From positions 1 to 62,384 of IMG/VR virus record IMGVR_UViG_3300028194_000282: 62,384 bases of DNA, one strand, 5' to 3'. Positions 13,907 through 59,900 of this stretch are shown here, one piece after another. This DNA is from a virus. Taxonomy: Duplodnaviria > Caudoviricetes. How positions within the stretch are numbered: the stretch's first letter is position 1; each line of letters starts with the position of its first letter. A model generated the notes under the pieces. The model was not told the origin of the DNA, did not search any database, and was given only the letters and a program-made list of their open reading frames with translations. A program made the position numbers and the translations under genes.

Positions 13907-13938
13907 AAAAAAGGGAGTGTCTTTGAAGACACCCCCTT
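13907..13938 (-). terminator. Intrinsic terminator of the capsid gene, with the 16-bp motif as its upper stem
   Basis: Minus strand reads AAGGGG-GTGTCTT-CA-AAGACAC-TCCCTTTTTT. Confidence 0.75.
13917..13932. repeat. 16-bp palindromic motif copy 1 (GTGTCTTTGAAGACAC)
   Basis: Exact match; intergenic. Confidence 0.95.
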
Positions 13939-13950
13939 AGTATTGCCTTC

Positions 13951-15393
13951 TTAGTTCTTAAATAAGAAGAAGTTGTTAGCACCTAAAGTACATACTGCTC
14001 TTTCAGATAAGAAGTTTACCTCCATAGCATCTAAGCTAGAAGTTTTTGCTCCACCTGCTGAACCTGTAATCCAAGTCTTGTAACGTCTGTCTTCAGTTTC
14101 TGAAGCTCTATATCTAACGTGCAAGAATGGTCTCTTAGCGTTCTTCCCTAAGATTTGGTCATATACAGAAGTAGAACCTGCAGGAACTAAAAGTCCACTT
14201 ACTTTTCCACTACCTGCAACATTTGAAAGACCACCTCTCATTGTTGGGTCGTTTAGGTATTTCCAATCAGACTTGTAGAAATCATAACCTCTACGGAATC
14301 CTGTGAAACCTAAGTTTAGAGCCATTTCTTTCTCATTGTCAAATAGACCATAAGATACTCCACCTGCTGCATTAGAAGATTGTTGAGATAACATATCGTC
14401 AATGTCGAAAGAGAAATCTCTATCTACAAATACTACGTTCTCTTCAATTGCTCCTTGCTTGTCAAGTCTAGAAATAATAGAATCCCACTCTGCTAAAGTA
14501 ACAGGGTTTCCTCCACCATATACATTTCCTCTTTCCTCAACAACGTAGAAGATACCATCTGAACCTTTGTTACCACCGTCAGCAAAATCTGCTTGTGAAA
14601 TCACACCACCATTTGCTTCAGCCGGAACTGCTTCAATCATTGCAGTCTCAAGATAATCGTCAAAACGTAATCTTGTTTCGTGCTCAGACTTTAAATACCA
14701 TAGGTATCCGTTTGCTCCGTTTTCAGTTGTAACCTCAACCCATCCAATCTGTGCCATATCAGAACCTGATACTGCATACTTATCTTTTAAGATAATTGGA
14801 GAATTTTCGAAGATGAAATCATCAGCTTCTAGAGAGTTAGCCATTCCTACTGTTCCTTTAGCAAATTCAGAACCGTAAATAAATACAGTGAATTTGTTAC
14901 CTGCTGATGCCACCGGCATACCTGAAGCAGGATAGAAAGCTACTTTGAATGTTCTGTTAGCATAGTCTACTACAGTTACAAGTCCTTTTACTGAACCTCC
15001 ACCTGCGTTGTCGCTAATCATTACAGTTTGACCTGTTCTAATTGCAATTGAACCTGTTGCTGCATTTACGAATGCAGGATTCAATGCATCTAGTACAGTG
15101 AATGTTGCATCGTTATCGCCTGCTGCTGCTGCTCCTGCAGTCAAGTCAACATATTTAGTATGCAATCTTCCTTGTTCTGCCCATTTAATAAGGTCAGAGT
15201 TAGATGGCATTTCTGCTCCTACCATTCTTAAGAATGAAGAAATAGTTCTGTTTCCATAACGCTCAAATTCCTTTTCATAAGTATCAGGAAGATACTGATT
15301 CAAGAAATCAAAATTAGTTATGTAGTTTGATTCCAACGGCACTCTTTGTGCACTTGGTTGTAAATCAAAACCGGGTACGTTTGATACGCTCAT
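13951..15393 (-). CDS. Major capsid protein
   Basis: 480 aa, follows the portal and scaffold genes, ends at a strong terminator; crAss/Cellulophaga-phage-like MCP character. Confidence 0.8.
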   Translation of the reverse strand: MSVSNVPGFDLQPSAQRVPLESNYITNFDFLNQYLPDTYEKEFERYGNRTISSFLRMVGAEMPSNSDLIKWAEQGRLHTKYVDLTAGAAAAGDNDATFTVLDALNPAFVNAATGSIAIRTGQTVMISDNAGGGSVKGLVTVVDYANRTFKVAFYPASGMPVASAGNKFTVFIYGSEFAKGTVGMANSLEADDFIFENSPIILKDKYAVSGSDMAQIGWVEVTTENGANGYLWYLKSEHETRLRFDDYLETAMIEAVPAEANGGVISQADFADGGNKGSDGIFYVVEERGNVYGGGNPVTLAEWDSIISRLDKQGAIEENVVFVDRDFSFDIDDMLSQQSSNAAGGVSYGLFDNEKEMALNLGFTGFRRGYDFYKSDWKYLNDPTMRGGLSNVAGSGKVSGLLVPAGSTSVYDQILGKNAKRPFLHVRYRASETEDRRYKTWITGSAGGAKTSSLDAMEVNFLSERAVCTLGANNFFLFKN

Positions 15394-19037: not shown

Positions 19038-21262
19038 CTAATAATTTCGCTTATACTTCCCTTGTTACTATACCTTGCAAAGTTAATCTTTATTTTTGAA
19101 AGTTTTTTCTCCGGTAAATATAGGTGTTTTTGTGTAGCCATTATCGCTAAACCAGAGGATATACTTGCATCGAACTTAGTTCTATTAGTAATATCAAACC
19201 TTGCCCAATCTTCTAAGGTTCTTCCAAAAACCATATCTCCCATTTCAAGTTCATCTTTCAATCCTATATTCTCTTCTATGTAAGATTCTATGGCAGAAGC
19301 GTGTGCTTGTTTAACTGCTTCACTAGAGTTGGGAATACCTCCTAGTTCTTTTTCTGTTTTTGATAGTTTAGTATAAGACTTATCAGGTCTATTCATACAA
19401 TAATGTCTATATCCTCTATTTTTAAAATGATATAATAATCTTGGTTTGTTGTTTTCAATTAAGATTGGCATTCCATAAAATACGCAAGCCATTAAAACAT
19501 CTTCAAAAAATATTTCTGCAGTTTGTGGTCTTGCTATGTATTCTAAAAAAAACTCATTTGATGGAGCATCATCCATATTAAACATAGTTTTTCCGTGCAG
19601 TGCTCCGTTAGAACCACCTCCACCAACTACACCTGAAATATCATAACTATCACATCCAAAAGCACCTATGTGTTCGTTGCCCGGAAACTTCAAACCTCTC
19701 TTGTCAATTACTTTGTTTTGTAAGGCTTTACTTGGTGTCCAAGACACCATAAATCTTCCTCTAGTATTAGGACTAAAAATAACTTTGGTATCTTGTATTC
19801 CATTCTTCCAACTTAAAGAACCACGAGTAACGTGATGCTCCATAATTAAAGAATCGTTATAATCTATTTGCTGATATATTCTAGTTAAATTAAACAAAGA
19901 TTGTTTGCTTTCATCTCTAAATGCGTGTGACTCTGTTCTAGGAAATTGTCTGTAATATTCATTTAAAGCATCAGGGTCATTTTTTAAAGAGTCAACTTCG
20001 TTTTGCCAATAGTCGATTGCACCGGTATAAATCATTTCATTGTCTATACCTAAGACTTCTTGCTTTGGAGTCTTTAATACAGGCATTCCATACCTATCAA
20101 TAAATCCTTCCATATTTAATTCCATAGGAACGAAAAGGGAATATAACCCACTTTTAGTCTGACCATTTGCATTTCGTTGTAACACATCTGAATCATTATA
20201 TAATTTTTTAAAATTCTCCCCACCTTTATCTAAAGCATTAGAGGTTGAACCCATCATACATTTACCTATAATTTTACTTCCTAAACGTAAACAAGTTTTA
20301 GTTACTCGCCAATTATTTAAGATGTTATTTGGTTTAATCCACTTACCACTCTCATCGTGAACTAATAATAATAATTTTTCACCATCATAAGAGTTATCGT
20401 CTGTGTTTTTCCAATCAATAGTTGTATCTAATCCAAACAATTCATCATTGGTTGTATCATACATATTTTTCTTTGTAATTTTTGCAGCAGGAATTCTAAA
20501 AGCTAATTCAGTTTTAGGTTTATCCATACCATCCATAATTGGTTTAAAGAAAAATGGTAATCTACTATTTATTGGAACAACTTTATCTGTAAACATTTTC
20601 TTAGCATCAGAACCTGTTTTAGATAAAATACCTACTCTAGAATCTTTTACTAATGTTCCTGTATTAACACATTCAGATGAACTCATAAATGAAAATCCTG
20701 AACGTCTTATTTTTAAATAACACATTCCAAAACTTCTTATGTCTGCTTTACAAGCTTCCCAAAAAATAAATAATAAACGATTTGCATCTCTATAGTCGGG
20801 ATATCCAACGTCAATAGATGTCCATTGTAGATACATATAATGAGCACCTGTAATATATGTGGGTATTCCATTATTCATAAACCACATCCCCTGCTCTCTT
20901 CTGTCAAACTCCTCCTCTACATAATCTACCCACCTATCCTTGAATGTTGAATCCATTTCATTCCATTGGAATATAGATTGAATCTTAGATAAAACTTTAG
21001 GTAGTTCTTTTCTTTCCCAATATTGTTCTGTTTCTTTTTTGTGTCTTTGAAGACACTTATTTCCAACCGGAGGTAATGCTATTTTTAAACCTTGTATTAC
21101 AATTACATCACCTATCTGACCTGTTTTAGATATAACAACAAAGTCATACTTACTATTGTACCCATATAGCCACGTTTTAGCCTTGTTCTTAGACTTTAAC
21201 ACACCTTTAGGTACTACACCTGTAAGTTGCTTAAATAAGCTATTTAGACCTTCTTTCTGCAA
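19034..21262 (-). CDS. Terminase large subunit
   Basis: Walker A-like LKIRRSGFS, Walker B LLVHDESGK, MGSTSN coupling motif, nuclease GCDSYD. Confidence 0.9.
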   Translation of the reverse strand: MQKEGLNSLFKQLTGVVPKGVLKSKNKAKTWLYGYNSKYDFVVISKTGQIGDVIVIQGLKIALPPVGNKCLQRHKKETEQYWERKELPKVLSKIQSIFQWNEMDSTFKDRWVDYVEEEFDRREQGMWFMNNGIPTYITGAHYMYLQWTSIDVGYPDYRDANRLLFIFWEACKADIRSFGMCYLKIRRSGFSFMSSSECVNTGTLVKDSRVGILSKTGSDAKKMFTDKVVPINSRLPFFFKPIMDGMDKPKTELAFRIPAAKITKKNMYDTTNDELFGLDTTIDWKNTDDNSYDGEKLLLLVHDESGKWIKPNNILNNWRVTKTCLRLGSKIIGKCMMGSTSNALDKGGENFKKLYNDSDVLQRNANGQTKSGLYSLFVPMELNMEGFIDRYGMPVLKTPKQEVLGIDNEMIYTGAIDYWQNEVDSLKNDPDALNEYYRQFPRTESHAFRDESKQSLFNLTRIYQQIDYNDSLIMEHHVTRGSLSWKNGIQDTKVIFSPNTRGRFMVSWTPSKALQNKVIDKRGLKFPGNEHIGAFGCDSYDISGVVGGGGSNGALHGKTMFNMDDAPSNEFFLEYIARPQTAEIFFEDVLMACVFYGMPILIENNKPRLLYHFKNRGYRHYCMNRPDKSYTKLSKTEKELGGIPNSSEAVKQAHASAIESYIEENIGLKDELEMGDMVFGRTLEDWARFDITNRTKFDASISSGLAIMATQKHLYLPEKKLSKIKINFARYSNKGSISEIIR
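21041..21056. repeat. 16-bp motif copy 2 (inside terminase, encodes CLQRH)
   Basis: Exact match. Confidence 0.95.
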
Positions 21263-35996: not shown

Positions 35997-37585
35997 TTGT
36001 CTTCGTATGTTCTTGCCATAGTAATGATAGCGTTAGTAGATAATAGAGTAACTGCAACCGACACTGCGTTTTGTAAAGCACATCTTGTTACTTTTAATGG
36101 GTCTATAATACCCATCTTGTACATATTGCCATACACACCTGCCTTAACATCATAGCCTTGGTCTGCAAGTACTAAGTTTTGACCTGTAATTTCTTGTGGG
36201 TCTTTCCCTGCGTTTCTTATAATTTGATAGATTGGTGCTTTTAATGCTTCGTGCATCATATATAAAGCCATTCCTTTAGCACCTTCTTTTAACACAGGCA
36301 TTTTAGTTCCTTCATTGAATAAAGCAAGTCCACCTCCCACAACTATTCCTTCTTCTAAAGCTGAACGTACTGCACATACTGCATCGTCAACTCTATCATA
36401 TAGTTCTTTTTGTTCTAGGTCTGTATTACCTCCCACATATATTACACCTACACCACCATTTAAGGAAGCTATACGACTTAATATAAACTCTTTATCTTCT
36501 TTTTGCTTAGTGTTTTCTAAAGCTTCTCTTAATTCAGATACTCTTTCCTTTACCAACAAGACATCTTCCTCGACATCTTTTATAATAACAGTAGAGGCAC
36601 GACCAACTATAACTTTAGAGCAATGACCTAAATCTCTTTCTGTCATTAAACTCAAATCATCTCCTGTTTTCTCAGAGAAATATGTTGCACCTAAACTAAT
36701 TGCAATGTCCTGCATTAACTCGTGAGACTTATATCCAAACGATGGGACACCAATGCAACATACCTTTAACCCGTTTTTCATAACATTGGCTGCTAATGTA
36801 TTAACTACATTGCTTGATACCGGTGCTATGATAAGTAGTTTCTTATGGTCTTGTATAATAGGCTTTAATACATTTTCAATGTTTAATAGGTTTTCTATTG
36901 GAGCATCACATACCAATACATAGCAATCCTCTAAAACACATTCATCTTTCTTTTGGTCATTAACAAACAAAGGAGATTCATAACCTCTTTCAATTTTTAA
37001 TCCGTTTGTAGTTTCATAATAAGTCTTAGAAGTCTCAGACTTGTCAACTGCAACGATACCGTCCTTACCAACCTTTTCATAAACCTTTGCGATTATATCG
37101 CCAATGAAAGAATCATTGTTTGCAGAAATAGATGCTACGTTCTTTAGTGTCTTTGAAGACACTTTTTTAGAATGCTTCTTTAAGTTCTTTACTACCTCAT
37201 CAGTTAGTGTGACAAGTTCTCTAAGTACCTCTGTCTTATTTTCGTCTAAATCCCTACCTGCGTTGACTAACGCTTCGGTTAAAACAATTGCAGTTGTTGT
37301 TCCATCTCCTGCTTGTGTTGCAGTTCTATCGGCTGCCTCTTTCATTATTCTTACTGCTAAGTTCTCTACAGGGTCTAACAATGAAACAGATTTAGCTACA
37401 GTTACTCCATCTTTGGTAACCGTGATTCCGTGTGTGTGCTGAGGTGATTCTATTAAGACTGTTTGTCCTGCAGGTCCAAGTGTTGACTTAACTGCTTTTG
37501 CTATTGTTTCTATTCCGTTATAAAGCTTACTTCTTCCGGATTTGTCAAACAATAAATTCTTAGGTGTGTATCCTATTTCCGACAT
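35993..37585 (-). CDS. groEL: Chaperonin GroEL
   Basis: STLGPAG, TKDGVTVAK, AGDGTTTA, GIVVGGG, GIIDP.KV; start at MSEIGY; promoter box at 37609-37616. Confidence 0.95.
   Translation of the reverse strand: MSEIGYTPKNLLFDKSGRSKLYNGIETIAKAVKSTLGPAGQTVLIESPQHTHGITVTKDGVTVAKSVSLLDPVENLAVRIMKEAADRTATQAGDGTTTAIVLTEALVNAGRDLDENKTEVLRELVTLTDEVVKNLKKHSKKVSSKTLKNVASISANNDSFIGDIIAKVYEKVGKDGIVAVDKSETSKTYYETTNGLKIERGYESPLFVNDQKKDECVLEDCYVLVCDAPIENLLNIENVLKPIIQDHKKLLIIAPVSSNVVNTLAANVMKNGLKVCCIGVPSFGYKSHELMQDIAISLGATYFSEKTGDDLSLMTERDLGHCSKVIVGRASTVIIKDVEEDVLLVKERVSELREALENTKQKEDKEFILSRIASLNGGVGVIYVGGNTDLEQKELYDRVDDAVCAVRSALEEGIVVGGGLALFNEGTKMPVLKEGAKGMALYMMHEALKAPIYQIIRNAGKDPQEITGQNLVLADQGYDVKAGVYGNMYKMGIIDPLKVTRCALQNAVSVAVTLLSTNAIITMARTYEDK
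37147..37162. repeat. 16-bp motif copy 3 (inside groEL, encodes VSSKT)
   Basis: Exact match. Confidence 0.95.
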
Positions 37586-38896: not shown

Positions 38897-38912
38897 ATGT
38901 CTTTGAAGACAC
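38897..38912. repeat. 16-bp motif copy 4 (15/16 match)
   Basis: ATGTCTTTGAAGACAC in the strand-switch region. Confidence 0.9.
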
Positions 38913-39139: not shown

Positions 39140-39781
39140 ATGGAATTACTAGCAATCGAAAATGCATTCTTACAATCCTCAGCGATTAAAGATGCATTAA
39201 AACTAAACGAAGTGAAACGTGTTCAGCGTTCAATCAACAATGCTCACAAGAGCAAATTCAATCATACTACTACACTATCCAAGTTAATTGGGGAAGCAGT
39301 TCAATGGTTTGAAAGTGAAGAGGGAAAGTCAAAATTTGCAGAAGAGGGAATCGAATGGAGCAAAGCAGAATTTGGTGCAAAGACTTTCGGTTATCAAAAA
39401 TCATTCTTCTACAAGCTAATCAAGGTGGCTAACCTAGACCAACGAATAGTAGATGCATTCAACGCAAAATGTGATGCAATCGGAACAGATGCAAATCGCT
39501 CAATTGCCGGTTTATTAGATTTCTCTAGAACAATTGACCTAGACAACTTAGATGTAAGTGAAGATGCAACAGAAGAAGAAATTGTAGAAGCAGAAAACGA
39601 AGCTATCGAAAATGCTGAAGTAGAGCAAGAGAGAGTTAACTACACATTTGTAATGACATACAAAAATCCTCAAGGAAACAATCTATCAGTTAGAATAGAT
39701 GACCAAGGTAATGTGTCCGGTAACAATCTAGAAGAGATAGCAAACGCAATTCAATTCTTACAAAATTCAATTAATAATTAA
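39140..39781 (+). CDS. Early hypothetical protein
   Basis: 213-aa ORF with an acidic linker. Confidence 0.8.
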   Translation: MELLAIENAFLQSSAIKDALKLNEVKRVQRSINNAHKSKFNHTTTLSKLIGEAVQWFESEEGKSKFAEEGIEWSKAEFGAKTFGYQKSFFYKLIKVANLDQRIVDAFNAKCDAIGTDANRSIAGLLDFSRTIDLDNLDVSEDATEEEIVEAENEAIENAEVEQERVNYTFVMTYKNPQGNNLSVRIDDQGNVSGNNLEEIANAIQFLQNSINN

Positions 39782-39783: not shown

Positions 39784-39799
39784 GTGTCTTCAAAGACAC
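39784..39799. repeat. 16-bp motif copy 5 (GTGTCTTCAAAGACAC)
   Basis: Exact reverse-complement form; intergenic. Confidence 0.95.
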
Positions 39800-39815: not shown

Positions 39816-40766
39816 ATGACAAACGAAATTCAATACACAATCGACAACAGAAGAGATAGAGCAACGATGCAAAGTTACCATCGTTCTCCATCTCCGAAAG
39901 ACCATTCAAAAGGTGCTAAGGATGGCGATATTGCTAACTTAAAATCAGCAAGCAAACGTAATCTAATTACGATAGAGGGAAACACTGAATCGAAGTTCAC
40001 TATCGGAATGGAAGTAGAGAAAGCTAGATTTCAAAGAGGTGCAGTAAAAGAGTATTCTTTATTTGCCGGATTTGAAAGAGATAGTTCTTGTGGCTATGAA
40101 GCTATAACGCATATCTTACCATTGTTACCTAGTGGAAAATGGAGAAACAAAGTATTCAATATGATGTTTGAAGCTAGAAACATTATTGAAGATTCTAAAA
40201 GTCCTAGTGACCTACAATGTGGTGGTCACATTACAATAGGTGTCCAAGGGATGACCGGTGCTGAAGTTATGAAATCAGTTAGGAAAAATATGGGGATTGT
40301 ATATGCATTGTTCTTTAAAAGATTAAACAATGGATATTGCAGAAGTAACTTAACTATGCTTGACAAGAACGAAGTTCAAGGTAGTGATATGATGAACGGA
40401 TTCGGTAGGTATTCAGCAGTGCTAGATAAAGGTGCAACAATCGAGTTTAGATTAGTTAGCAGATTTCAATCGGTAAAGCAGATGATGAGAAGATACGAGT
40501 TAATGTATGAGTTACTTGATTTCTCAATCAACAATCCAAATGGAAGCCACAATGCTTTCCTTAGAAAAGTTACACCAATCATCAAGTCTATGTACAATGG
40601 CGATATGGCTATGGTAGAGCAGAAGTTATCAATGGCTAAATCATTTAGAACAATGATTCTAAAGAATAAGGTTAACCGAGATGTAATTAACTATGTAGAC
40701 CCAATGCGAAGAATGGATGCTCGCAAATGGTACGATAGAGACCTACAAAGGAATGGAAGTAGATAG
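39816..40766 (+). CDS. Putative amidoligase (COOH-NH2 ligase family)
   Basis: IGMEVE, DSSCGYE, CGGHITIG, TIEFR motifs. Confidence 0.7.
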   Translation: MTNEIQYTIDNRRDRATMQSYHRSPSPKDHSKGAKDGDIANLKSASKRNLITIEGNTESKFTIGMEVEKARFQRGAVKEYSLFAGFERDSSCGYEAITHILPLLPSGKWRNKVFNMMFEARNIIEDSKSPSDLQCGGHITIGVQGMTGAEVMKSVRKNMGIVYALFFKRLNNGYCRSNLTMLDKNEVQGSDMMNGFGRYSAVLDKGATIEFRLVSRFQSVKQMMRRYELMYELLDFSINNPNGSHNAFLRKVTPIIKSMYNGDMAMVEQKLSMAKSFRTMILKNKVNRDVINYVDPMRRMDARKWYDRDLQRNGSR

Positions 40767-40792
40767 TCTAACAAGGGAGCAGAGATGCTCCC

Positions 40793-40843
40793 TCTGTCCA
40801 CAAGTGAGTGCTTGTGCTGATGAGTTCAAAAGAACGAAACAGA
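40793..40843 (+). ncRNA. Type III hammerhead ribozyme
   Basis: Stem III TCTG/CAGA, GUC cleavage triplet, stem I CACAAG/CTTGTG, CUGAUGA core, stem II GTTC-AAAA-GAAC, GAAA. Confidence 0.9.
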
Positions 40844-40866
40844 AAAATTAATTTAATCTAATCACA

Positions 40867-41478: not shown

Positions 41479-42056
41479 AGAAGTTTATAATACTAACAAG
41501 TATATCTGTGATTGGATATGTTGGAGCAGATGTGTCTTTGAAGACACAATCTGTGTCGATGAAAGAGGAGGATTTATTTCCTCCTCAATCATTGGTCGAT
41601 GTCCTGACAGTGGATACGGTTCAGGATACAATACGAATCATTAATTCGTTTGACATAGACACGACCTTGACATTCAACGACTTTATAGAAGCAGTCATAT
41701 ACATAGAAAGCAGAGGTGATAGTCTAGCATACAACACAAAAGAAAAAGCAGTGGGTGTGCTACAGATTAGACCTATAATGCTCCGGGAAGTTAACCGGGT
41801 GCTAAGAAAAAATAAAGTTCCTGGCAAGTATGTGCTACAGGATAGATACTCACAGGAGAAGTCAATCGAGATGTTTGAAATTATGGCTGAACAAGTTAAT
41901 CAAGATGAGTTAAGTCAGATGCAGTTCTTTGAAATTGTTGCACGAAGGTGGAATGGTGGAAGGAGAGGCGACAAAAAGAAAGCTACAATAAAGTATTGGG
42001 AGCGAATTAAAAATCAATTAAATATAATAAATTATGGAAAGTTCAGTAATCAGTAA
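41475..42056 (+). CDS. Lysozyme-fold (transglycosylase-like) protein with N-terminal signal/anchor
   Basis: IYIESRG...AVGVLQI...ARRWNGG...YW. Confidence 0.65.
   Translation: MKKFIILTSISVIGYVGADVSLKTQSVSMKEEDLFPPQSLVDVLTVDTVQDTIRIINSFDIDTTLTFNDFIEAVIYIESRGDSLAYNTKEKAVGVLQIRPIMLREVNRVLRKNKVPGKYVLQDRYSQEKSIEMFEIMAEQVNQDELSQMQFFEIVARRWNGGRRGDKKKATIKYWERIKNQLNIINYGKFSNQ
41532..41547. repeat. 16-bp motif copy 6 (in gene, encodes VSLKT)
   Basis: Exact match. Confidence 0.95.
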
Positions 42057-42339: not shown

Positions 42340-42355
42340 GTGTCTTCAAAGACAC
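42340..42355. repeat. 16-bp motif copy 7 (in the 5' leader just after the promoter)
   Basis: Exact match. Confidence 0.95.
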
Positions 42356-42377: not shown

Positions 42378-43448
42378 ATGTGCGTAATTATTATTAAGCA
42401 AAAAGAAAGTATGATGTCTGAAGAGATAGCCAAGACATCATCAAAAATTAATCCTCACGGATTAGGAATTATTTGGCTAGACACTTTTGAAGTTACTTAT
42501 CACAAGTCAAAAGATTATCGAATACTATTAACAGACAGACCATTCATTGCTCACTTTAGGTATGCAACTATGGGTGCAGTGAACAAGTCAAACACTCATC
42601 CATTTGTATGTGGAAACAACAAGGATGAGATGTTAATGCACAACGGAACTATAAAAGGTTTAGGTAGTGCAGAACTATGTGATTCAAAAGCTTTAGCAAT
42701 TGAACTAGGGTCAACACCTAGACAAGATTGGAAGACACGACTAGAGCAGTATGATTCTAGATTTGTTTCTGTGAACTTACGAACTCGTTCATTCCAAATT
42801 TATAATCGTAATCTCTATACATATAGAGATGGCATTTGGTATTCCAAAGCCAATGTATTGCAAGACAATCTTATTGCAGTATACGGAACTCTTAAGAAAG
42901 GGTTTAGCAACTACTATAGTTTTCTTACCAACGCAAAACATTTAGGAAGAGGAACAACTCAAGACAAGTATCCTTTGTTAGTTAGTGGGTTACCTTATAT
43001 GGTAGACAAGAAAGGTGTAGGTCACAATGTGGTTGTTGATGTATTTAAAGTTAGTGATGTTCAACTTGAAAAGGTTGACCAACTAGAGGGTCATCCACAA
43101 TGGTATCAAAGAAAACTTATACCAATAAAATTAAAAGATAGAACTCTTAATTGTTGGTTGTACTTTAATCCAAAACAAATAACTCCAACTACAGAAATGC
43201 ATAAAGAGTATGTGCAACAAGTACAAAAGAGATTTACTTTTGAGGATGTAGGCACAAGCTATGACACTGCTGAATATCACGAAGCAATAGACATAGGGTG
43301 GACAGACAACGATTTTCCAACTAACGAAACCAATGCTTGTATAGATTGTTTTAATGATGTGGAACACGATGGCTTTGCCAACTACTACTGCTCCTCTTGT
43401 GGGAATTGGTTTACAGAAGAAGAAATAGTTAACTTTAATAAAATATAA
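42378..43448 (+). CDS. Class II glutamine amidotransferase fused to a gamma-glutamylcyclotransferase-like domain and Zn ribbon
   Basis: N-terminal MC, NPHGLG, HFRYAT.G, HPF, MHNG, DS; then AVYGTLKKG...DQLEGHP..Y.R; C-terminal CxxC...CxxC. Confidence 0.85.
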   Translation: MCVIIIKQKESMMSEEIAKTSSKINPHGLGIIWLDTFEVTYHKSKDYRILLTDRPFIAHFRYATMGAVNKSNTHPFVCGNNKDEMLMHNGTIKGLGSAELCDSKALAIELGSTPRQDWKTRLEQYDSRFVSVNLRTRSFQIYNRNLYTYRDGIWYSKANVLQDNLIAVYGTLKKGFSNYYSFLTNAKHLGRGTTQDKYPLLVSGLPYMVDKKGVGHNVVVDVFKVSDVQLEKVDQLEGHPQWYQRKLIPIKLKDRTLNCWLYFNPKQITPTTEMHKEYVQQVQKRFTFEDVGTSYDTAEYHEAIDIGWTDNDFPTNETNACIDCFNDVEHDGFANYYCSSCGNWFTEEEIVNFNKI

Positions 43449-44425: not shown

Positions 44426-44702
44426 AGAACTAATTAAGCAAGTAGGGAGGGAAGTGGTAATGCTCCTGCTCGAAAAAAATAAAGCCTATGGAGACACGGC
44501 TAACAAACCACCAAAAATATTTTCAAAGCTATCAGCCAAGGAAGGAATCTTAGCTAGGATAGATGATAAGTTAAGTAGAATCAAGACCGTTGGACTAAAC
44601 GACAAGACAGAGGATACAATGCTTGACCTTATTGGATACCTTATATTATATAGGGTGCAATGCAAGAAGGAAGTGTCTTCAAAGACACAGAAAATAAGTT
44701 AG
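44412..44702 (+). CDS. DUF1599 / nucleotide-modification-associated-domain-like protein
   Basis: KNKAYGD...RIDDKLSRI...EDTMLDLIGYLIL. Confidence 0.7.
   Translation: METTEELIKQVGREVVMLLLEKNKAYGDTANKPPKIFSKLSAKEGILARIDDKLSRIKTVGLNDKTEDTMLDLIGYLILYRVQCKKEVSSKTQKIS
44673..44688. repeat. 16-bp motif copy 8 (3' end of gene, encodes VSSKT)
   Basis: Exact match. Confidence 0.95.
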
Positions 44703-44766
44703 ACAAAATTTGGAAAAGTAATATACTTTTGTTACCTTTATAGTCAATCAATTAAATCAAAATCAA

Positions 44767-47039: not shown

Positions 47040-47156
47040 AAAGAAACGAGTTAAGTGGTTCAAAGTTCCAATGGAATGCAAGACTCGTGAGGAAAAAGAT
47101 AATCTTATCCTCTATATAATAAACAATTTGGAACAAACAATTAAAATCAATTAATT

Positions 47157-47429: not shown

Positions 47430-47445
47430 GTGTCTTCAAAGACAC
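47430..47445. repeat. 16-bp motif copy 9 (immediately after the stop codon)
   Basis: Exact match. Confidence 0.95.
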
Positions 47446-47455
47446 CGGTAATAAG

Positions 47456-47483
47456 AAGGGAGACAATAGTCTCCCTTTCTTTT
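47456..47483 (+). terminator. Intrinsic terminator
   Basis: AAGGGAGAC-AATA-GTCTCCCTT-TCTTTT. Confidence 0.8.
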
Positions 47484-47649
47484 ACCCCAATTAATGTTAC
47501 TTGTCGGAAAAAATAATCAACTATACTCTTTTATAGTATATATATTTTTCTTTTCTTTACCTATATAAAGAAAATAAATAACATAATCAACATAACTACT
47601 GATAATCAGAGAGTTAAATAAATCAAATCAACATTAAATCAACATATAT

Positions 47650-50303: not shown

Positions 50304-51748
50304 AAAGAAACCTAGGTTATTCCAACGAGATGATGTATAACCAATGCTTACTGTTTTATAATATAATATTTAAAACAAAAAAAGTAAAAGTAGGCAGAGG
50401 AAAAAACGCAAAATTTATAGAAGAAAGAGCGTACACTCCCGAAACAAGTGTAGACAGAAGAGCAACTGATAGTTTAAACTATTATAAAAATAAAATGAAA
50501 ACCAAAAGTAAAATTAAATACAGAGATTATCAAAACAAAATTATTATAAAAGGAGCCGAGATACTTTTAATCCATAACTTTCTTTACCTAACAATGGAGG
50601 TAAGGACAGGCAAGACATTGACAAGTATGGGCATAGCAAAGCTGATGAATAAGAAAAATGTTTTGTTTGTTACAAAGAAAAAAGCAATTAGCAGCATAGA
50701 AAATGATTACGAATCACTAGACCCTGACTATGACTTAACAACAATAAACTACGAATCATTACACAAATTACCCAAGCCGGGTAATTATGATTTAGTAATT
50801 TTAGATGAAGCACATTGTATGGGTGCATTTCCTAAGCCAAGCAAGAGAGCCAAACAAATATTCTCTTTGATTAAATCTAATGTGTGTAGCGTTATATTAT
50901 TATCAGGCACACCAACTCCCGAATCTTACAGTCAAATGTATCATCAAGTCTATGGCATAGGCAACAATCCATTTAATGAGCACGTTAATTTTTATAAGTT
51001 CTCTAAAAAATACGTCAATGTAAAGCAAAGAAAAATAAATGGTTTGTTTATTAATGATTACCACGATGGACTACAAACTATTATAGATGCAATGAAACCA
51101 TATACAATTGCTTATTCACAAAAAGAAGCAGGCTTTAAGGTTGATACGAAAGAACATACGCTATATGTAAAGATGAAACCAATCACATATCAGATTGCTA
51201 ATAAACTAAAGAAACAATTAGTAGTAGAAGGAAACGAAGAAACCATACTTGGTGATACACCGGTGAAGTTAATGATGAAGCTTCATCAAATATATTCAGG
51301 CACTGTTAAGTTTGAATCAGGCAAGTCAACTATATTAGATTTATCCAAAGCACAATTTATACACGACAATTTTGCAGACGTAAAAATTGGAATCTTCTAT
51401 AAGTTTAAAGAAGAACTTAACGCATTGATGCAGGTCTATGGAAAATCAAACCTTACTACAGAACTTAGTGTCTTTGAAGACACAGATAAATCAATAGCTT
51501 TGCAAATAGTTTCAGGTAGAGAAGGTATTAGTTTAAGGCAAGCAAAAGCTTTAGTCTATTACAACATAGACTTTAGTGCCACAAGTTATTGGCAATCAAG
51601 AGATAGGATGACAACTAAAGAAAGATTGAACTCAGACATCTATTGGTTGTTCTCCGAAGGAGGAATAGAAGACACAATTTATAAAGCAGTTAGCAAGAAG
51701 AAAGATTACACCGTAAATCATTTCAAAAAGGATTTGTTATCTTTGTGA
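50255..51748 (+). CDS. SF2 (SNF2-like) helicase
   Basis: RDYQ, EVRTGKT, ILDEAH, LSGTP, GREGISL, QSRDR; exact start uncertain. Confidence 0.85.
   Translation: MHSDKEIRQGKTDYVVERNLGYSNEMMYNQCLLFYNIIFKTKKVKVGRGKNAKFIEERAYTPETSVDRRATDSLNYYKNKMKTKSKIKYRDYQNKIIIKGAEILLIHNFLYLTMEVRTGKTLTSMGIAKLMNKKNVLFVTKKKAISSIENDYESLDPDYDLTTINYESLHKLPKPGNYDLVILDEAHCMGAFPKPSKRAKQIFSLIKSNVCSVILLSGTPTPESYSQMYHQVYGIGNNPFNEHVNFYKFSKKYVNVKQRKINGLFINDYHDGLQTIIDAMKPYTIAYSQKEAGFKVDTKEHTLYVKMKPITYQIANKLKKQLVVEGNEETILGDTPVKLMMKLHQIYSGTVKFESGKSTILDLSKAQFIHDNFADVKIGIFYKFKEELNALMQVYGKSNLTTELSVFEDTDKSIALQIVSGREGISLRQAKALVYYNIDFSATSYWQSRDRMTTKERLNSDIYWLFSEGGIEDTIYKAVSKKKDYTVNHFKKDLLSL
51468..51483. repeat. 16-bp motif copy 10 (inside helicase, encodes VFEDT)
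   Basis: Exact match. Confidence 0.95.
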
Positions 51749-52564: not shown

Positions 52565-53015
52565 GAACAGAATGCAACAAGTTGTTGATTCTAAAATGAT
52601 ATTCGCAAATCTTTTACAACAAAAAGGATACGGCTGCAGTGTTATTGCTAAGTATATGGGAATGAACCACGCAAGTATATTACACTACTTTAAAAAGTTT
52701 CCTTGGTACTTAAAAACTGAAGCAGGATTAAGAAATAATTATGAAAGAATCAGGTCAGAATATTTTAGTGAATACGACCCTGTTTATTATTTGTCGGAAA
52801 ATGAACTAAAAAAAGAATTGTTTTCTTTGAGATTTGATAATAAAAAACTATCTTCACAACTGAGTAAAGTCGAAGACCAACTTGCCAATGTCACTAGAAG
52901 AGAGGATAGACTAGGGGAAATTTTCCAACTCATAACAGAAAGAACAAGACCAAATACAGAACCCAAAATACTCAGTAAGCTGAGAAGATTTTACAATGGT
53001 GTATACGATAACTGA
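52464..53015 (+). CDS. Second DnaA-domain-IV-like HTH protein with coiled coil
   Basis: R.QQVVDSKMIF...IAKYMGMNHASILHY. Confidence 0.6.
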   Translation: MDKRLQNLYLKEEEFLHLREIIKSQTGVEVRNNKNRMQQVVDSKMIFANLLQQKGYGCSVIAKYMGMNHASILHYFKKFPWYLKTEAGLRNNYERIRSEYFSEYDPVYYLSENELKKELFSLRFDNKKLSSQLSKVEDQLANVTRREDRLGEIFQLITERTRPNTEPKILSKLRRFYNGVYDN

Positions 53016-53998: not shown

Positions 53999-56900
53999 TT
54001 AATAGTCACTCATTTCATCTTTTAATTCTTTTCTCAAGTCTTTCATTTCTTGTTTGATATCATAAATATCAGAACCTTTTCCGTATATATCTTCATACAA
54101 TTCAGGGTCGATTAGTTTCAAATCAGCCTTACTTGTTTTCTTTTTCTTAGTGGTTGTTTTCTTTTTCTTAGTACCATATCCCGGTCTGTAAGATGGTGTA
54201 ACACCCGTTGCATCATAAATGTTATCATCATCGAAATCACCTCCTAGAATCTTCGCTACACCTATTGGTGAATCTAACTGCATACCGGCAATGATTTCAA
54301 AAATTGGTTGCACAACTGCGAGTATTGAGCCATCTTCTTTCATTTCTTTATATGCCTTGTCTACTTTTCTTACTACAGATGTAAGTGGATTAACACCATC
54401 ACTAATAGGTTTTCTATCTCCGGATATTTTAGCCACTGCACTTTCTATACCTGCTCCTAAAATAGGAACTGAATAAAGAAGGTTCAATCCAAGTGCAGCA
54501 TCTCTTAACGCTCTTAACGCTCTGTCACGCTCATCTCCTTTACCCACAAGTAATGCAGGTGCATAAGACATAGCAGTAAACATTACGTTGGCTACGGCAT
54601 AATTAAGAACAAACTTTCTATAGTCTGATTTTCCTGCTTTACCACTTACTATTGCTGAACCTGCTTGACCTACGTTGTTCATCATAAGAAATAATGAACT
54701 ACCAAACATAGTAAAGAATCTATTAAACACATCTGTTGATTGCTGCATTGGGGATTTTTCAGTTGCTCTTCTAGTTTGTTGAGTTGAGTTAAACTCATTA
54801 AACAATCTTAAAGCTTCTGCTTTACCCATACCATTTGCTATCGCTCTGTTGTATACTGCTTTGTATCCAAGTACACCAAGTATATCTCCTGCTACTGTTG
54901 TAAAACCTTTAACTTTTTCAAAACCTCTAGATAATTTACCTTTTCGACCTTGGTCAGCTTTAAGACTCTTATAAGTTCTACTTCCTGATTCAAGACCAAA
55001 TATATCTCCTGCTAATCCTTTTTTCAAACGAGCATCAAAAGTTGCAGAAATATCTCTAGACTCTTTTATTTCACTAGGTAGTCTTGCTATAACTTTAAAG
55101 TAATCGTAAGCAAAGTTTATTAAATCATATCCCGGAATTTTATTAGGTTGAGGAGTAGCAGAATACTTTTCAAATGCTTGATAAAATGAAGATGCTTGCT
55201 TAACTATCTGCACAGGTTTAAGTGCTAAAGCAAACCCTGTAAACTTGTTTTGTATCCAAGATACAACATCTTGGTCAACACTTGGACCTGAGTCAGGATT
55301 GATTGCATAGTTTAAATTCGATAAGAACAATCCTTTTAAACCCGTTTGTTCTAAAAGTAAATTAATAGATGGGTCTTTTAATACTTGACTCATTTCTTTA
55401 ACACCAACGGCATAAGCTTTGTACTTTTCCATTTGATTAACGTGGTCTTCCATCACCTCGCTAAATGATTGTCCTATTTCTACATCATTTGTTTTATCAA
55501 ATCTTTCTTTAAAAGCAGGTGAGAACTCTGTATCAAAAATGTTTTGGAACTGACCTGCACCAATCATCTCAGCAGTTATCTGTTCTTTGATTGTTCTTGT
55601 TGGGAAATAGTTCTCTACAAACCCAAGACCTATATCATTTACTTGAATGTATACATCATTAGTTTCTTCAAAGTATGAGTTACTTAAAAAGTCTACTGCT
55701 TGGTCTACTAAAGCTACATTATCGGGACCTATAAATGTTTTGATACCTTCGATATCTAACTTCTGTCTTTCTAATTTTTTACCCTGTATTTTATTTTTAG
55801 ATAAAGCATAGAGCCTCATTGCTTGGTCTTTGTTTAATCTTTTGTTAGCAGGTTTCCCGGTCTTGCTATTTATCATAGTAAACTCTTGTGTCTCTGTTCC
55901 TAAAGAATACTTCCAATCAGTCCAATCTTTTTTGTTTGTAGATTGAGCCATTGAATTCATTTTAGATTCAGTCCTTCTAATTCCTTTTAGAGTATTCTCA
56001 TCAAAGTCATTTAGTCTGTCAAAAAATATTCTAGTAAACATACCTCTTGTGTTGCCATCTAGTTTTCTAGCTACAGTTCCAAGGTGTGCAATTTTGTTTT
56101 CCATAAACTTAACTACTCCATTTGATTTTAATTGTTCTCCATCATAGAATGTTTTAAAGAATGTTCTTAAACCACCAAACAAACCGTTCTTCTCAAACCC
56201 TTCTCTTATTTTTTCTTGTCTTGTTTTAACTTGGTTTTTGTTTAACGGATTACCGTCTTCGTCAAACAAGAATTCATAATTGCTTTCAATCTCAGCTTTA
56301 AATTCTTCTTTTATTTCATTAAGAGCCTCTCTTCTTGTGTTCCTACGGTTGTTTAAATTAGCTATAGACTCTGAACTTGTAGCCTTTACATCTACAAATA
56401 AATCTTCTACCTGTTGTAAATCCATATTCAACACATCACCAAAAGTGTCGATAGCTAATTGTCTGTCAAGTAATACTTGTTGTTTAGACGTTAACTTTTT
56501 ACCGGCTTCTTTATCAATTAAAGCTTGTTCGTAAGCTTCAGGGTTGATAGATTCTTGCAAATCAATAATGGCTTGTAAGTCACCTTTCTTAGCTGCATTC
56601 AAAACTTTCTCTACTTGCGTAAAGTAACTTTGTCCCGGTGCATCTAATCCTGCCGACCTTCTTTTACCACTCGCAGTTTTTCTTACTTTAACTTTACTCT
56701 TAACTAGTTTAGCTATTTTATCTATTAATATATTTCGTTGCACTAATCTTTGTGCTTCTACCTGTGTTAACACTTCACTCACTTTACCTACAAAGTTTTT
56801 TGGAGTAGTTGTGTTAATGGTTTTTAATAAACTATTAATAGCCTTGTTGCTATAATTTTTAGAATTAGGTAATAGCTTTCTTATAATTGTTCTCATTCTT

Positions 56901-59900
56901 CTCTGAGCATCAGCTATATTGTCTTTGCTTATTTTTCTTTGCTTAAGATTGTTTTTAATTTGACCAATCTCTTTAGATACTCTTTGATTGGTTCTAATAC
57001 CAAGCATTCTATCTAATGCAACTGTTAACTCTAATTGTGTTTGTTCAGGTTGCACTTGGAAGATAGGATTAGCTTTTAAAATATCTAAAGCTTTTTGTCT
57101 TACCTCAGCAAATGATTTAGTTCTTTCCGGAACTCCTCGTCCAACTCTTTTGCTTCCTGAAAAAGCAAACTCATTTATCTTTGCTCTAACTTCATTAAAC
57201 AATTTGAATCCAACTTTTGCACCACCATCTACATTTCCAAACTCTCTTGGCAGTGGCTTAGTAAGGTCTATATTAACAACCATTGCGTTATTTATATCCT
57301 TAGCCTTAAAGCCTCTGTTTTTTAATACCACTCTTATAGACTCATCATTTATAAACTGCTCTCTACCTTGTTGAATAATACTCTCCATAGAGATATCAGA
57401 ACTAAACATAGCTTCAGGATTTTTCAAGGCTATCATCTGTTCATCTGTCATCTTGATTTCTTTTCCTGCAAAAATATCTGCAAGTGCAGTACCTAAGAAT
57501 TGGTCTAGAGTTAAGTCTTGTATCTCTTGTTCACTTAAGTCTGTTGATAGTTTAAACTTTCTTTGTATGTATTGCCACATACCAAGAAGCCATTCTTGAA
57601 ACTTAGATTTAACTGAAGCATCTGCAATGGTCTGTCCTTTGTTACCAATTAAAATAGCCATCGCTTCATTAGTTGCTTTAGTAACATCACCATTAAATCT
57701 TTCAAGTTGTGTTTTAAAAGTATCAGTTTGTTGCACTAATTCTGCACCCTGCTTGTATATTTTTCTTCCTTGTTCTGTTGTCTGTAAATAGTCTGTCCAA
57801 ACGTGACCCATCTCGTGAATAGATGTGTTGAATAAAGCAGACTCTGAGTTGTGTACTTCAGGGTTAATATAAATATCCCCGTCTACTGTAACACCATATA
57901 CTACTTCGTTTCCTTTTAAATACTTAGTCACATTGTCTTGTGACATTACATTATTAAATGAGTTAGCATCGGTATTAATTACAACACCGGGAAATGAAAT
58001 ATTCATAAATGCATTAAGCTTATCTACATTGCTCGGATTAGAATTTGCAATTACTCCAACATAATCAAATGATGGGATACCAATCCCTACTCCTGTTTGT
58101 TGTGCTCTTAATGTTTTGGTAGATGTTGGCTTCTTCTTACTTGCTTTTTGTTTATCAGTGTCAGTTGAAACTTCTGTTGTCTTTTGTTTTTCGCTTTCAA
58201 TTAGTTTTGAAAACACTTTCCCATAAGCTTTCGGATACACTTTAGCCATCTGTTGAGGGTTCTCTAGAATACCTATAGACTTTCCTCTAACTCCATACTT
58301 ATAGTTAGGATGTGTAGTTTCAACAACACCGGGATTCAAAACGTCAACACCAACAATAGAGATTACATTTCCAATAGGAACATTTCTTAATTGTGGGTCT
58401 GTTACAACATCAGTTATAACACCTATGTTTATTAAATCAGTTTTAGTACTTACACCTTTAAGTAAAACTTGTGGTACTGCTTTGGTTTTAGCATTAACTG
58501 TTCCTGCTTTTTTAGACTTCTGATTAGGTGTATTAGCCTTACCTGTTGTAGCGAGTCTTATTAAATGACTTCTAACCGGCAACGGTAAGGTTTGAATAAA
58601 TTCATTACTAAAAACATCATCTATGCTTTTAGGATTTAATTTCTCAATAGCATCTTGTAATTGCTGAAACTCACTCAACTCTTTTGTTGGTTTTGCTTTA
58701 GCTTGTTGTCTAGCTACTTCGGCAGCAATCTCTGTTTTTAAAACAGGTATAGCTGCTTTTCTATTTGTCTCAGGTAATGTTTTAAGATTATCAAGCAATA
58801 CTCTAGATACTGCTTCATTTGATATCATAGCATTCTCACCCATCTTAACTACGTTCATAGGAACTAAGCCATTGTATTCAGGGTTTGCTGCCCACCAAGA
58901 ATCAAATACTTCTTTATTGTTTTGATATACTTGTTCGGCTTTGTTTATTGTGGTCTGTGCTTCTTTCTCAGTAACATTTGCCCAAGCTGCATTCTCATTT
59001 CCTGTTGTTCCGTTAAAACCTACTGCTCCTTTTAAGTTGTCTATTGTGTTGCCTGTCGTGGAATTCACTACGTTCCCCGTAGTTAGTTGGTCGCTTATCG
59101 TAAAAATAGTTGGTATACCTTTAATTACTTCTAGCTTAGTAATCTTAAGTGGGTTATCAGTTCTTGTGTTTAACTCTTCTACATTTATATCTGCAGACTC
59201 TTCTGTGCTTTCAATAACTGTTTCTACATTAGGAGATTCTATCTCGTTAATTTCTGTAGTTATGTCAATCTCATCAGGACCTACATTATCAGTATTGTTT
59301 TCGTTGTCAGTTTGAATTTTAAAATCAACCTTTGGTTTTTTACCATCTAGTGATGCTTCCAAGTCAGCCACCTCTTGTGCTTGAACATCATTATCCATTA
59401 CTGACTCTTCTTGATTTAGTGTCTTTGAAGACACTCCATCTTCTGCAGTAGTTTGTACAATGTCTGTTGTGGTTTCAGTAGGTGCTGCTTCATTAGTTAC
59501 ACTCTCTGCTTCATTAGTTGTAGTCTCAGCAGCAGGAGTTTCAAGATTACCTTCATCAACAACAAGACTTCCATCATCTGATATCTTTACTTTCTCTTGT
59601 ATAGGAGCAACCTTAGCCTCCACCATTTTATTAGCTAAGTATTGAGCAGTTTCATCATCATTATCTATAGATGCGTTTAAACGACCTAAGTCTCTTGGGT
59701 CTAACTCATTTATATAATTTAGAAACTCTTCCTTAGAAACCTCTGTAAACTGCCCTAGCTTACCTCTAAATCCTTTTTGGATTCTATATGTTTGCTTTCC
59801 TGCTCTTAAATCTGTACCTGCATTTTGTTCGCTTGGAGATAGCACACCCTCTCCTGCTAGTCTAGTTTCCTGACTAGGGTCAAGTAAAGTTTTAGTGCTA

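Follow-up and report, generated by a model that had tools for sequence, protein, structure and literature searches.

Replicons on which one self-encoded protein acts at many dispersed cognate sites are already known, KorB operators and mycobacteriophage stoperators being described cases. Plasmid RK2 carries about a dozen identical palindromic KorB operators (O_B) over a replicon of ~60 kb, some of them far from promoters. Stoperators are asymmetric 13-bp sites oriented with transcription, and in Cluster A mycobacteriophages the specificities of repressor and site co-evolve between subclusters. At the RNA level, the histone stem-loop with SLBP and boxB with lambda N each combine a short, fixed hairpin common to a set of mRNAs with a dedicated protein; the histone stem-loop is 16 nt long, with a 6-bp stem and a 4-nt loop. 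KorB is described as silencing over long range (PMC11790492), and the stoperators of the Cluster A mycobacteriophages L5 and Bxb1 as short sites spread genome-wide, largely in short intergenic gaps, at which bound repressor, acting as a monomer, halts elongation (PMC9283540); the evolution of immunity in Cluster A phages is the subject of PMC6550527. Phage tf has 14 nicks at TACT/RTGMC, their positions similar in relatives and the main site different, with nickase-site co-evolution suggested and with amidoligase and glutamine amidotransferase genes also present in nicked phages (PMC3517423, PMC3890496), and hammerhead ribozymes flanking phage genes are proposed to cut long transcripts into gene-length mRNAs (Perreault et al. 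2011, PMC3088659). Here, we describe a dispersed palindrome array in IMG/VR virus record IMGVR_UViG_3300028194_000282, an uncultured marine phage of 62,384 bases that is rated 100% complete (the whole stretch is called the window below), in which an original prediction had noticed the array. Eleven copies of a 16-bp palindrome are spread over this genome, related phages carry their own versions of it at recurring places, and its presence follows that of a three-gene module, of which the first early protein, E1, is the candidate reader.

Written as a double-stranded site, the palindrome of the window is GTGTCTTCAAAGACAC. Its pattern GTGTCTTYRAAGACAC, i.e. GTGTCTT(TG/CA)AAGACAC, matches the window exactly 10 times, compared with no match in 100 dinucleotide shuffles. 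With any two bases (NN) at the centre and up to two mismatches there are 11 matches against 0.30 expected, and these are the 11 copies of the original prediction, ten of them exact and the one at 38897 agreeing in 15 of 16 bases. The copies are listed here; E1, E2 and the GATase-GGCT gene are early genes described further below.

13917..13932, minus strand: motif copy at the tip of a 12-bp hairpin (13911-13938) that is followed by a T-run, 18 nt past the stop of the capsid-like gene 13951-15393
21041..21056, minus strand: motif copy in the variable linker of TerL, codons ~69-74, read as CLQRH, between the conserved blocks IALP and EQYWER
37147..37162, minus strand: motif copy within GroEL, read as VSSKT
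38897..38912, plus strand: motif copy with 15 of 16 bases, ATGTCTTTGAAGACAC, in the stretch that separates late from early genes, 227 nt ahead of E1
39784..39799, plus strand: motif copy 2 nt past the E1 stop and 16 nt ahead of the E2 start
41532..41547, plus strand: motif copy within the open reading frame (ORF) 41475-42056, read as VSLKT; its centre is TG in the window and CA in relatives
42340..42355, plus strand: motif copy ahead of GATase-GGCT, 22 nt from its start; the outer stem, GAGG...CCTC, covaries
44673..44688, plus strand: motif copy close to the end of ORF 44412-44702, read as VSSKT
47430..47445, plus strand: motif copy 1 nt past the stop of ORF 47157-47429, followed by the hairpin GGGAGAC-AATA-GTCTCCC and TTTC
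51468..51483, plus strand: motif copy within the SF2 helicase, codon ~405, read as SVFEDT
59419..59434, minus strand: motif copy within the giant ORF, read as VSSKT

Late and structural genes fill the minus strand from 1 to 38.6 kb, and the early and replication block lies on the plus strand from 38.7 to 53.9 kb. Seven of the 11 copies fall within 38.9-51.5 kb; density had been claimed to be highest in the early region. The giant minus-strand ORF (window 1-689 plus 53999-62384) runs over both ends of the window as a single open frame of 3024 codons, and the record is therefore circularly permuted and cut within the giant gene. Four copies (13917, 39784, 42340 and 47430) sit 1-22 nt from a stop or start codon, and six are intragenic, in the very readings that had been predicted (CLQRH in TerL; VSSKT in GroEL, ORF 44412-44702 and the giant ORF; VSLKT in ORF 41475-42056; VFEDT in the SF2 helicase). 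The TerL copy counts as intragenic only if TerL starts upstream of its first ATG, a start that is supported by PHROG coverage from residue 27 of the TTG-start ORF and by the conserved flanks IALP and EQYWER. Two gene labels of the original prediction found no support: ORF 41475-42056, called lysozyme-like, has no PHROG or Pfam match, and ORF 44412-44702, called DUF1599-like, has phrog_1485, of unknown function, as its sole match. Read in the sense direction, the centre is CA in eight of the ten copies with an assigned direction, again as predicted (over all 11, CA in 8 and TG in 3), and on the plus strand it is TG at seven copies and CA at four. The flanks of different window copies are unrelated to each other.

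The intragenic copies are not a by-product of codon usage, since synonymous-codon shuffles of 45 coding sequences (n=2000) gave a mean of 0.067 exact copies and a maximum of 2, and never the 6 that are present. Nor is the array an assembly artefact: the stretch 38600-48599 is present (at least half of its words) in 19 public runs, which belong to 11 studies, three other studies have contigs that span the copies at 38897, 39784, 41532, 42340, 44673, 47430 and 51468, and none of the 40 listed differences (96 in all) between those contigs and the window lies inside a copy. As a separate observation, several independent Logan contigs begin or stop in or beside the copies at 38897 and 44673 (window 38901-38906 and 44688-44713).

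We mapped the copies of ten palindrome-bearing genomes onto the window genes (related genomes and loci are denoted by G and L numbers), and the same places recur whatever the version of the motif. In all ten genomes one copy lies 14-32 nt upstream of E2 and another precedes the GATase-GGCT gene. G002, G003, G004, G005, G006, G007 and MW202828 have a copy within the region upstream of E1 or next to it, the G003 flank (L057) being nearly identical, and the window, G001, G003, G004, G007 and G008 have one just past the capsid-like gene, each with its own motif. Within the giant gene, G001-G004, G007 and G008 have one copy each, at residues equivalent to ~324-1102 of the window protein; GroEL also has a copy in G002 and G008, at another codon; and G003 shares the copies in the homologues of ORF 41475-42056 (codon 20) and ORF 44412-44702 at the same codons as the window.

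Two intragenic sites were compared without selecting for the motif. At the SF2 helicase site (77 subjects), every GTGTCT phage has AGTGTCTT-YR-AAGACAC, encoding SVFEDT or SVFKDT, with synonymous variation on either side, whereas palindrome-free relatives have DEFDTT, EDFDNT, KDFEET or SIFEST, and the GTCCGT lineage has SPFERT, encoded by its own motif. In the terminase linker between IALP and EQYWER (16 genomes), the window, G002, G003 and G004 read KCLQRH, G008 reads ACPQRH (a mixed half-site) and G005 reads QLVDEP (its own motif), while the palindrome-free G009-G013 have no palindrome there and unrelated sequences. Together with the codon shuffles, these comparisons bear out the predicted conservation at the nucleotide level: selection acts on the nucleotides, and the protein residues change to fit the local motif. 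Within a lineage the whole set of sites switches together, and this requires a sequence-specific factor that is not the same in all lineages.

An exact-pattern scan of viral contigs returned at least 162 loci, among them several contigs of 40-64 kb with many copies; G001-G004 have 19, 13, 13 and 12 matches, respectively (any centre, one mismatch). Among 156 distinct GTGTCTT-NN-AAGACAC sites, for which any centre was allowed, 128 have CA/TG, 19 TA, 9 CG and none another centre, so that the TG/CA centre claimed as invariant is so within the window, while TA and CG occur in relatives as well. The closest GenBank relative, MW202828.1 (TerL 74.6% identical), has no window-type copies and 14 copies of GTGTCGTTAACGACAC, in which both arms are changed with compensation; all 14 are perfectly symmetric. 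Its source is a freshwater spring, and the window occurs in marine runs. Further versions were found near primase-helicase homologues (76 loci), namely GTGTCC..GGACAC, GTCCGT..ACGGAC, GACGCC..GGCGTC and GGCTCG..CGAGCC, each repeated within its own genome and each with a T-Y-R-A-like centre. The 12 arm bases are common to all copies of one genome, and between genomes the arms differ (GTGTCT, GTGTCC, GTGTCG, GTCCGT, GACGCC, GGCTCG) with full compensation. Palindrome carriers have 10-19 sites per ~60-kb genome. One of them, G008, mixes two half-sites: nine of its copies are C/G, seven mixed and none T/A, compared with 9.8/5.5/0.8 expected by our own arithmetic if half-sites assort independently. 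In G005 and G007 the centre varies in a loop-like manner (CCAA, GCAA, TCAG, TACA).

Many relatives lack any repeated palindrome. Five of them are cultured, namely Maribacter phage Panino, Flavobacterium phage elemoA, Cellulophaga phages phi38:1 and phi46:3 and Tenacibaculum phage Gundel, and in all five both GTGTC-N6-GACAC and any enriched palindrome are absent. A megablast of 20 kb against phages returned no match. The GGACC-N4-GGTCC "palindromes" of palindrome-free genomes are collagen-like coding repeats, and the repeats in L219 and L247 are coding tandem repeats. Other repeated words do occur in this group: the non-palindromic word AAACACTATCAA is present eight times in Cellulophaga phage phi38:1, and a similar word, ACACTATC, lies between palindrome and start codon at two MW202828 sites. 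L257 (17.9 kb) has 13 occurrences of the 8-bp palindrome GTTTAAAC, mostly within genes and often with a G next to it on the 3' side, with less than one expected by a rough estimate.

The genes that accompany the palindromes were read from a profile of every window ORF over the 15 other genomes, in which tblastn lost three diverged E1 copies that a profile search recovered. Three genes are present in all nine other palindrome genomes and absent from G009-G014.

39140..39781, plus strand: E1, first early gene, 213 amino acids, proposed reader of the palindrome
39816..40766, plus strand: E2, 316 amino acids, carboxylate-amine ligase of glutamine-synthetase fold, member of the module
42378..43448, plus strand: GATase-GGCT, a fusion of a class-II glutamine amidotransferase and a gamma-glutamyl cyclotransferase (Pfam GGACT 1.7e-20, GATase_4 8.4e-6)

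By profile search, both E1 and E2 are present in every one of the 10 palindrome genomes and in none of the 11 others. Of the loci, 37 extend at least 9 kb upstream of the primase-helicase, and among these E2 is present in 15 of the 15 with palindromes and in 0 of the 22 without; E1 is present in 12 of those 15, lies beyond or is cut by the locus end in the other three, and is found in 0 of the 22 palindrome-free loci. This agreement of motif and gene presence points to a dedicated, co-evolving system. The module also cuts across core-gene similarity, in that the palindrome-free G010-G012 are closer to the window (terminase, portal and capsid 83-86% identical; TerL alone 84-86%) than the palindrome-bearing G002, G004 and G008 (70-80%; TerL alone 77-80%), and the co-occurrence is therefore not just phylogeny.

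E2 is an enzyme: a Foldseek search of its model against the PDB gave a best E of 1.5e-4, with glutamine synthetases, YbdK and PafA among the matches, although E2 has no Pfam match and a PDB profile search returned nothing. Its phyletic correlation had suggested E2 as a reader, which is ruled out by its glutamine-synthetase fold and by 95% identity between G005 and G006, two genomes with unrelated motifs. As E2 and GATase-GGCT are enzymes, E1 is the remaining candidate. It is the sole non-enzyme of the module and the fastest-evolving of the three genes. Between G005 (GGCTCG) and G006 (GACGCC), E1 is 43% identical, compared with 95% for TerL, 95% for E2, 85% for GATase-GGCT and 97% for the primase-helicase. 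In the E1 tree, motif switches fall on long branches (G007, G005/G006, MW202828 and G008), and three GTGTCT genomes likewise have long branches. In the alignment of ten E1 proteins, the putative recognition helix has K-[SA]-x-x-[YH]-K in all seven genomes with GTGTC arms and differs in G005, G006 and G007.

The E1 model (pLDDT 86) has a helical domain over residues 1-165, followed by a small beta domain of three strands plus a helix. In a VIA-align search of 48,161 chains, DNA-binding domains of KorB, Spo0J and ParB appear four times in the top 50 with Z values of 4.3-5.3, which count as leads: 1r71_A (KorB on its operator; Z 5.3, 99 aligned, rmsd 3.6), 1vz0_A (Spo0J, 5.2), 8qa8_A (KorB, 4.8) and 6s6h_B (ParB-parS, 4.3), the KorB DNA-binding domain being the third- and tenth-ranked match. 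In a language-model search, whose scores are again leads only, the nearest named clusters are DUF3102, DUF6192 and a Borrelia plasmid-partition protein, and BFVD gave just E1's own unnamed family. Among the readers that the original prediction had put forward, the first early protein thus tracks the palindromes, but the wHTH protein (35342) and the two DnaA-IV-like proteins (44900-45256 and 52464-53015) do not, being also present in palindrome-free relatives at 36-80% identity. Of its broader interpretations (DNA organisation, partition, self-marking, global regulation or an RNA tag), that of a dedicated site-specific system is supported, while partition is not: E1 has no detectable N-terminal ParB/Srx CTPase domain (Pfam; the model is helical, then beta), and no ParA-like partner or KorA was found among 66 ORFs searched against PHROGs or 23 against Pfam.

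We consider it about an even chance (roughly 0.5) that the palindromes are the cognate sites of phage-encoded E1, and that protein and sites form a private pair whose specificity has changed several times among these phages. On this proposal E1 would bind the double-stranded 16-bp sites as a dimer, each monomer reading one 6-bp arm, with the T-Y-R-A centre as a deformable spacer. Made first, E1 would then occupy the junctions of its own operon (after its own stop, before E2 and before the GATase-GGCT gene) as well as a few fixed places in late genes, and once bound its effect would be to tune or block transcription, comparable to what happens at KorB operators on RK2 or L5-type mycobacteriophage stoperators. 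Many of the sites would be built into RNA hairpins that the phage needs anyway, such as the capsid-gene terminator and the hairpins that abut or form hammerhead stem III, because the palindrome costs no extra space there. Recognition is most likely sequence-specific and on DNA, a reading we favour because the G008 half-sites assort independently, the centre is limited to pyrimidine-purine steps, the bare hairpin is weak, and E1 is DNA-binder-like if anything. The analysis itself demonstrates the enrichment of the copies, the lineage-specific versions, the conserved positions with amino acids altered to suit, the strict co-occurrence with the module and the enzymatic nature of E2; from these we infer that E1 is the reader, that it reads DNA rather than RNA, acts as a dimer and exerts transcriptional control.

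Several observations weigh against E1 as a DNA-binding reader. Because of relatedness among the loci and genomes, the counts of co-occurrence do not represent independent events, and G014 (74% complete) retains two copies without E1 or E2. The E1 proteins of G002 and G004 are just 37-40% identical to that of the window and go with the same motif. The Z values of E1 are below the aligner's own caution level for helical proteins, Foldseek against the PDB gave nothing for the E1 model at E <= 0.001, and for 12 E1 homologues no Pfam family reached threshold (E <= 1) and a PDB profile search returned nothing. Palindrome-free relatives without E1 also have sequence-conserved intergenic hairpins. Most sites stand just past stop codons or 15-23 nt ahead of start codons, not at recognisable promoters. 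Over 123 sites in 10 genomes, pairing of the flanks reaches further on the sense strand by way of G-U pairs (28 vs 9 sites at a difference of at least 2; binomial p 0.0026). In addition, the palindrome is the hairpin ahead of the cleavage site in 8 of 16 distinct type III hammerheads (G003, G004, L209 and others), and in G007 three type I hammerheads, with cleavage ~20 nt ahead of a start codon, have it as the outer part of their stem III.

The last of these points lead to a tentative alternative, less probable than E1 binding to DNA, in which the motif works as RNA: its 6-bp stem and U-Y-R-A tetraloop would tag gene boundaries and mRNA 3' ends, such as terminator tips or the ends that hammerhead cleavage or a nuclease would leave, where a sequence-specific RNA-binding factor, possibly E1, would control processing, stability or translation, comparable to SLBP on the histone stem-loop or lambda N on boxB. 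The strand preference of the flanks, through G-U pairs that on the opposite strand would be C-A, argues for it (25 of the 29 sites with an extension of at least 4 favour the sense strand); when any difference between strands is counted, the figures are 40 vs 28 (p 0.18). Individual hairpins are suggestive too. The one at copy 13917 has 12 pairs (6 of them G-C), a loop of 4 and the minus-strand tail TTTTATTTAA; one such hairpin was found against 0.5 expected, it folds at -18.8 kcal/mol in sense and -15.4 in antisense, and it resembles an intrinsic terminator in sequence. At copy 42340, the motif with its outer stem folds at -12.6 kcal/mol, and the outer stem of this GATase-upstream site covaries, with GGAT/ATCC in G002 and GAGG/CCTC in G007. 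The loop-like centre variation in G005 and G007 also fits a hairpin, and cutting of transcripts by phage-gene hammerheads has been proposed (PMC3088659).

Hammerheads occur in the window as well as in relatives, and that of the window is without the motif.

40775..40844, plus strand: non-motif hairpin (40775-40792) followed by a predicted type III hammerhead ribozyme (40793-40844), between E2 and the next gene

This element (z -4.4) has the core sequences CTGATGA at 40817 and GAAA at 40836 and the cleavage triplet GTC ending at 40798, with predicted cleavage after C40798. Around a conserved core, the 7-bp stem I arms of the 16 distinct type III elements are fully paired and come in 14 different versions, the arms of stem II in 7 and those of stem III in 4, as counted by our own parser, which requires pairing, so that this variety is that among accepted elements and not an unbiased test. 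Of 29 hammerhead cores in the 76 loci, 25 are on the sense strand, and type I elements also occur in relatives. Rfam gathering scores were not reached by the window element (Hammerhead_3, 18.1 vs 48.5 bits, a partial local match) or by the type I element of L275 (Hammerhead_1, 28.8 vs 34). Because the palindrome forms stem III of hammerheads or abuts them, some sites are certain to be transcribed and to fold; near most copies there is no hammerhead core, and the palindrome itself matched no Rfam family at E <= 1. Contigs of the metatranscriptome run X20 cover 14 of 30 bins, which shows neither RNA ends nor expression.

Several findings argue against RNA as the working form. At -5.6 kcal/mol the core hairpin has little stability, and 6 of the 11 window copies fold into no more than the 6-7-bp stem of the motif. 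At pair 6 of the G008 sites there is no preference for U-G (3) over C-A (4). Structure alone explains neither the identical arms within a genome nor the amino acids altered to keep them, and the sole non-enzyme of the module resembles DNA-binding folds, if anything. A further proposal, which we regard as rather unlikely, is that E1 reads the palindrome as an RNA hairpin in addition to DNA or in its place. Together with the hammerheads this would amount to a phage-private marking of mRNA ends, in which a KorB-like fold decides which transcripts are cut, kept or translated by a lineage-specific hairpin "address"; a bolder version has the nucleic acid at such addresses also carrying a chemical mark, which the linked ligase and amidotransferase would make.

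We regard it as improbable that the copies serve another DNA transaction, namely localized nicks as in T5, phiKMV-like and LUZ24-like phages, or base modification by E2 and GATase-GGCT with E1 targeting. The 10-19 sites per ~60-kb genome, their conserved positions and lineage-specific versions, and their strict link to a ligase and amidotransferase module are in keeping with such a role, and phage tf offers parallels in nick-site number, position and drift and in the amidoligase and amidotransferase genes (PMC3517423, PMC3890496). However, known nick sites are asymmetric and on one strand, while the site here is a palindrome whose centre reads TG at seven and CA at four copies of the plus strand, MW202828 has 14 symmetric copies, and searches of Pfam, PDB profiles and Foldseek found no nuclease domain in E1.

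A host protein was among the readers first proposed, and a transcription factor, nucleoid protein or defence component whose versions track the hosts is a very improbable explanation. The freshwater MW202828 and the marine window have different versions and probably different hosts, as it would expect. Against it, a bacterial scan gave at least 124 loci, and almost all of the 80 listed are single copies scattered over unrelated phyla, the exceptions among these being three contigs of one Pirellulaceae metagenome-assembled genome (MAG), with one copy each, and a 56-kb phage-sized contig with at least five copies. Presence moreover follows the E1 module and not core-gene relatedness, and the close relatives G005 and G006 have completely different motifs. 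The phage-sized contig, WTJX01000555.1 (56,458 bp; L344-L347 and L394), has its five or more copies within 10 kb and was placed in the bin of a Cytophagales MAG; the contig itself probably belongs to a phage of this group, for which the binning is weak host evidence.

To the idea that the copies are kept alike by copying, with no reader, as in T4-type promoter-stem-loop cassettes or REP-like mobile hairpins, we give hardly any weight: dense, near-identical hairpin-plus-leader units between small early genes (nine copies in 3.4 kb of G001, L036; five identical 17-nt hairpins in G009) and phage-encoded Sak-type annealing and exonuclease proteins speak for it, but inserting 16 nt would disrupt a reading frame and six copies are nevertheless in frame at conserved codons, the flanks of different copies are unrelated, and no transposase or HUH enzyme was found among 66 ORFs compared with PHROGs.

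Other candidates were tried and rejected. REP/RAYT elements do not account for six of 11 copies being intragenic and in frame, and no transposase is annotated among the 66 ORFs. An N4- or crAss-like virion RNA polymerase with hairpin promoters is unlikely in that the giant ORF has no family or PDB sequence match, its DFDDD is not conserved and the motif lies inside transcripts (in G007 the hammerhead core is upstream of it). A host -7 promoter box, which we take to be TAnnTTTG, would be wrongly oriented in most of the copies ahead of an ATG, and the MW202828 version has no TTTG. Mimicry of a restriction site by way of GAAGAC, presumably such a site, is not shared by the other versions, and the copy number and intragenic positions do not fit CRISPR-repeat mimicry (PMC10651486).

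Some further features of these genomes are recorded here. The 3024-residue product of the giant ORF has no Pfam, PHROG or PDB sequence match, and its DFDDD at residue 2946 is not conserved in five homologues; in cultured phages it matches only a "structural protein" of Gundel_1, over 145 residues. On the plus strand, a gene for tRNA-Arg (anticodon TCT) at 38282-38356 lies upstream of the early genes, near the late/early switch, and a similar tRNA is present in G003 and G008. ORF 21590-22003 on the minus strand matches a SET domain in Pfam (E 1.7e-7, above the curated cutoff) and by tblastn occurs in none of the 15 other genomes; its neighbour has faint similarity to a 2OG-Fe(II) oxygenase. Long hairpins of the form ACCACCAA-CC...stem-loop...GGGG-(A/T)TTTGGTGGTAG stand ahead of early genes in the palindrome-free loci L232 (2570-2660, 2860-2945 and 5030-5175), L250 and L264, and a related hairpin plus a TTTTGG tail occurs in L245 and L258. 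G009, a genome that lacks E1 and E2, has in L247:718-2612 five identical GGGGAGCGCAATGCTCCCC between conserved flanks, placed 17-25 nt ahead of successive small early genes. The segment L245:1921-1955 reaches the Rfam gathering score for DUF805b RNA (39.0 vs 35.6 bits), just upstream of a palindrome copy.

We found no published description of this motif or system. A full-text search for two 16-mers gave no match in its scope, to which most subscription journals and supplements do not belong, and literature searches on Cellulophaga phi38:1, Baltic Flavobacterium phages, phage hammerheads and ParB-like phage proteins gave no description of it. What appears to be new here is the protein family, the symmetric 16-bp sites that overwrite coding sequence, the presence of at least six specificities and a mixed intermediate, the link to a gamma-glutamyl enzyme cassette, and the merger with hammerheads. 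If E1 does read the sites, these abundant uncultured marine and freshwater phages would possess a compact, self-contained regulator-site pair, whose six or more natural specificities, with the G008 intermediate, would offer a ready case for the joint specificity change of a protein and a dozen dispersed sites. A regulatory site would then override protein sequence, with residues of terminase, helicase and the giant protein dictated by the motif; the link to the gamma-glutamyl cassette and to intercistronic hammerheads would provide a testable context for two poorly understood phage features; and orthogonal protein-site pairs would be useful as synthetic gene-control parts.

Compared with known systems, the array shares with the nick sites of T5, phiKMV and LUZ24 phages the ~10-14 sites per genome, the conserved positions, the drift of the site and the ligase and amidotransferase genes nearby, and differs in that those sites are asymmetric and on one strand while the window site is palindromic. 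Like the phages with known hammerheads, the window and its relatives have type III and type I elements between early genes, with the motif hairpin in or abutting them, although the palindrome itself is no ribozyme. The motif has the same geometry of a 6-bp stem and a 4-nt loop as the histone stem-loop; SLBP and lambda N are RNA binders, whereas the candidate reader E1 resembles, in its model, a DNA binder. As with stoperators, window copies lie in short gaps between genes, but they are symmetric 16-bp palindromes and not asymmetric sites in one orientation, and there is no integrase or immunity cassette among the window ORFs scanned. Finally, set beside KorB and O_B, E1 is a phage early protein and not one of plasmid partition, no CTPase domain, KorA or ParA having been found in the searches described above, and the window sites lie in coding sequence and RNA hairpins; the likeness consists of one replicon-encoded protein, about a dozen dispersed palindromes and, if the proposal is right, global control, with a weak match of the E1 fold to that of KorB.

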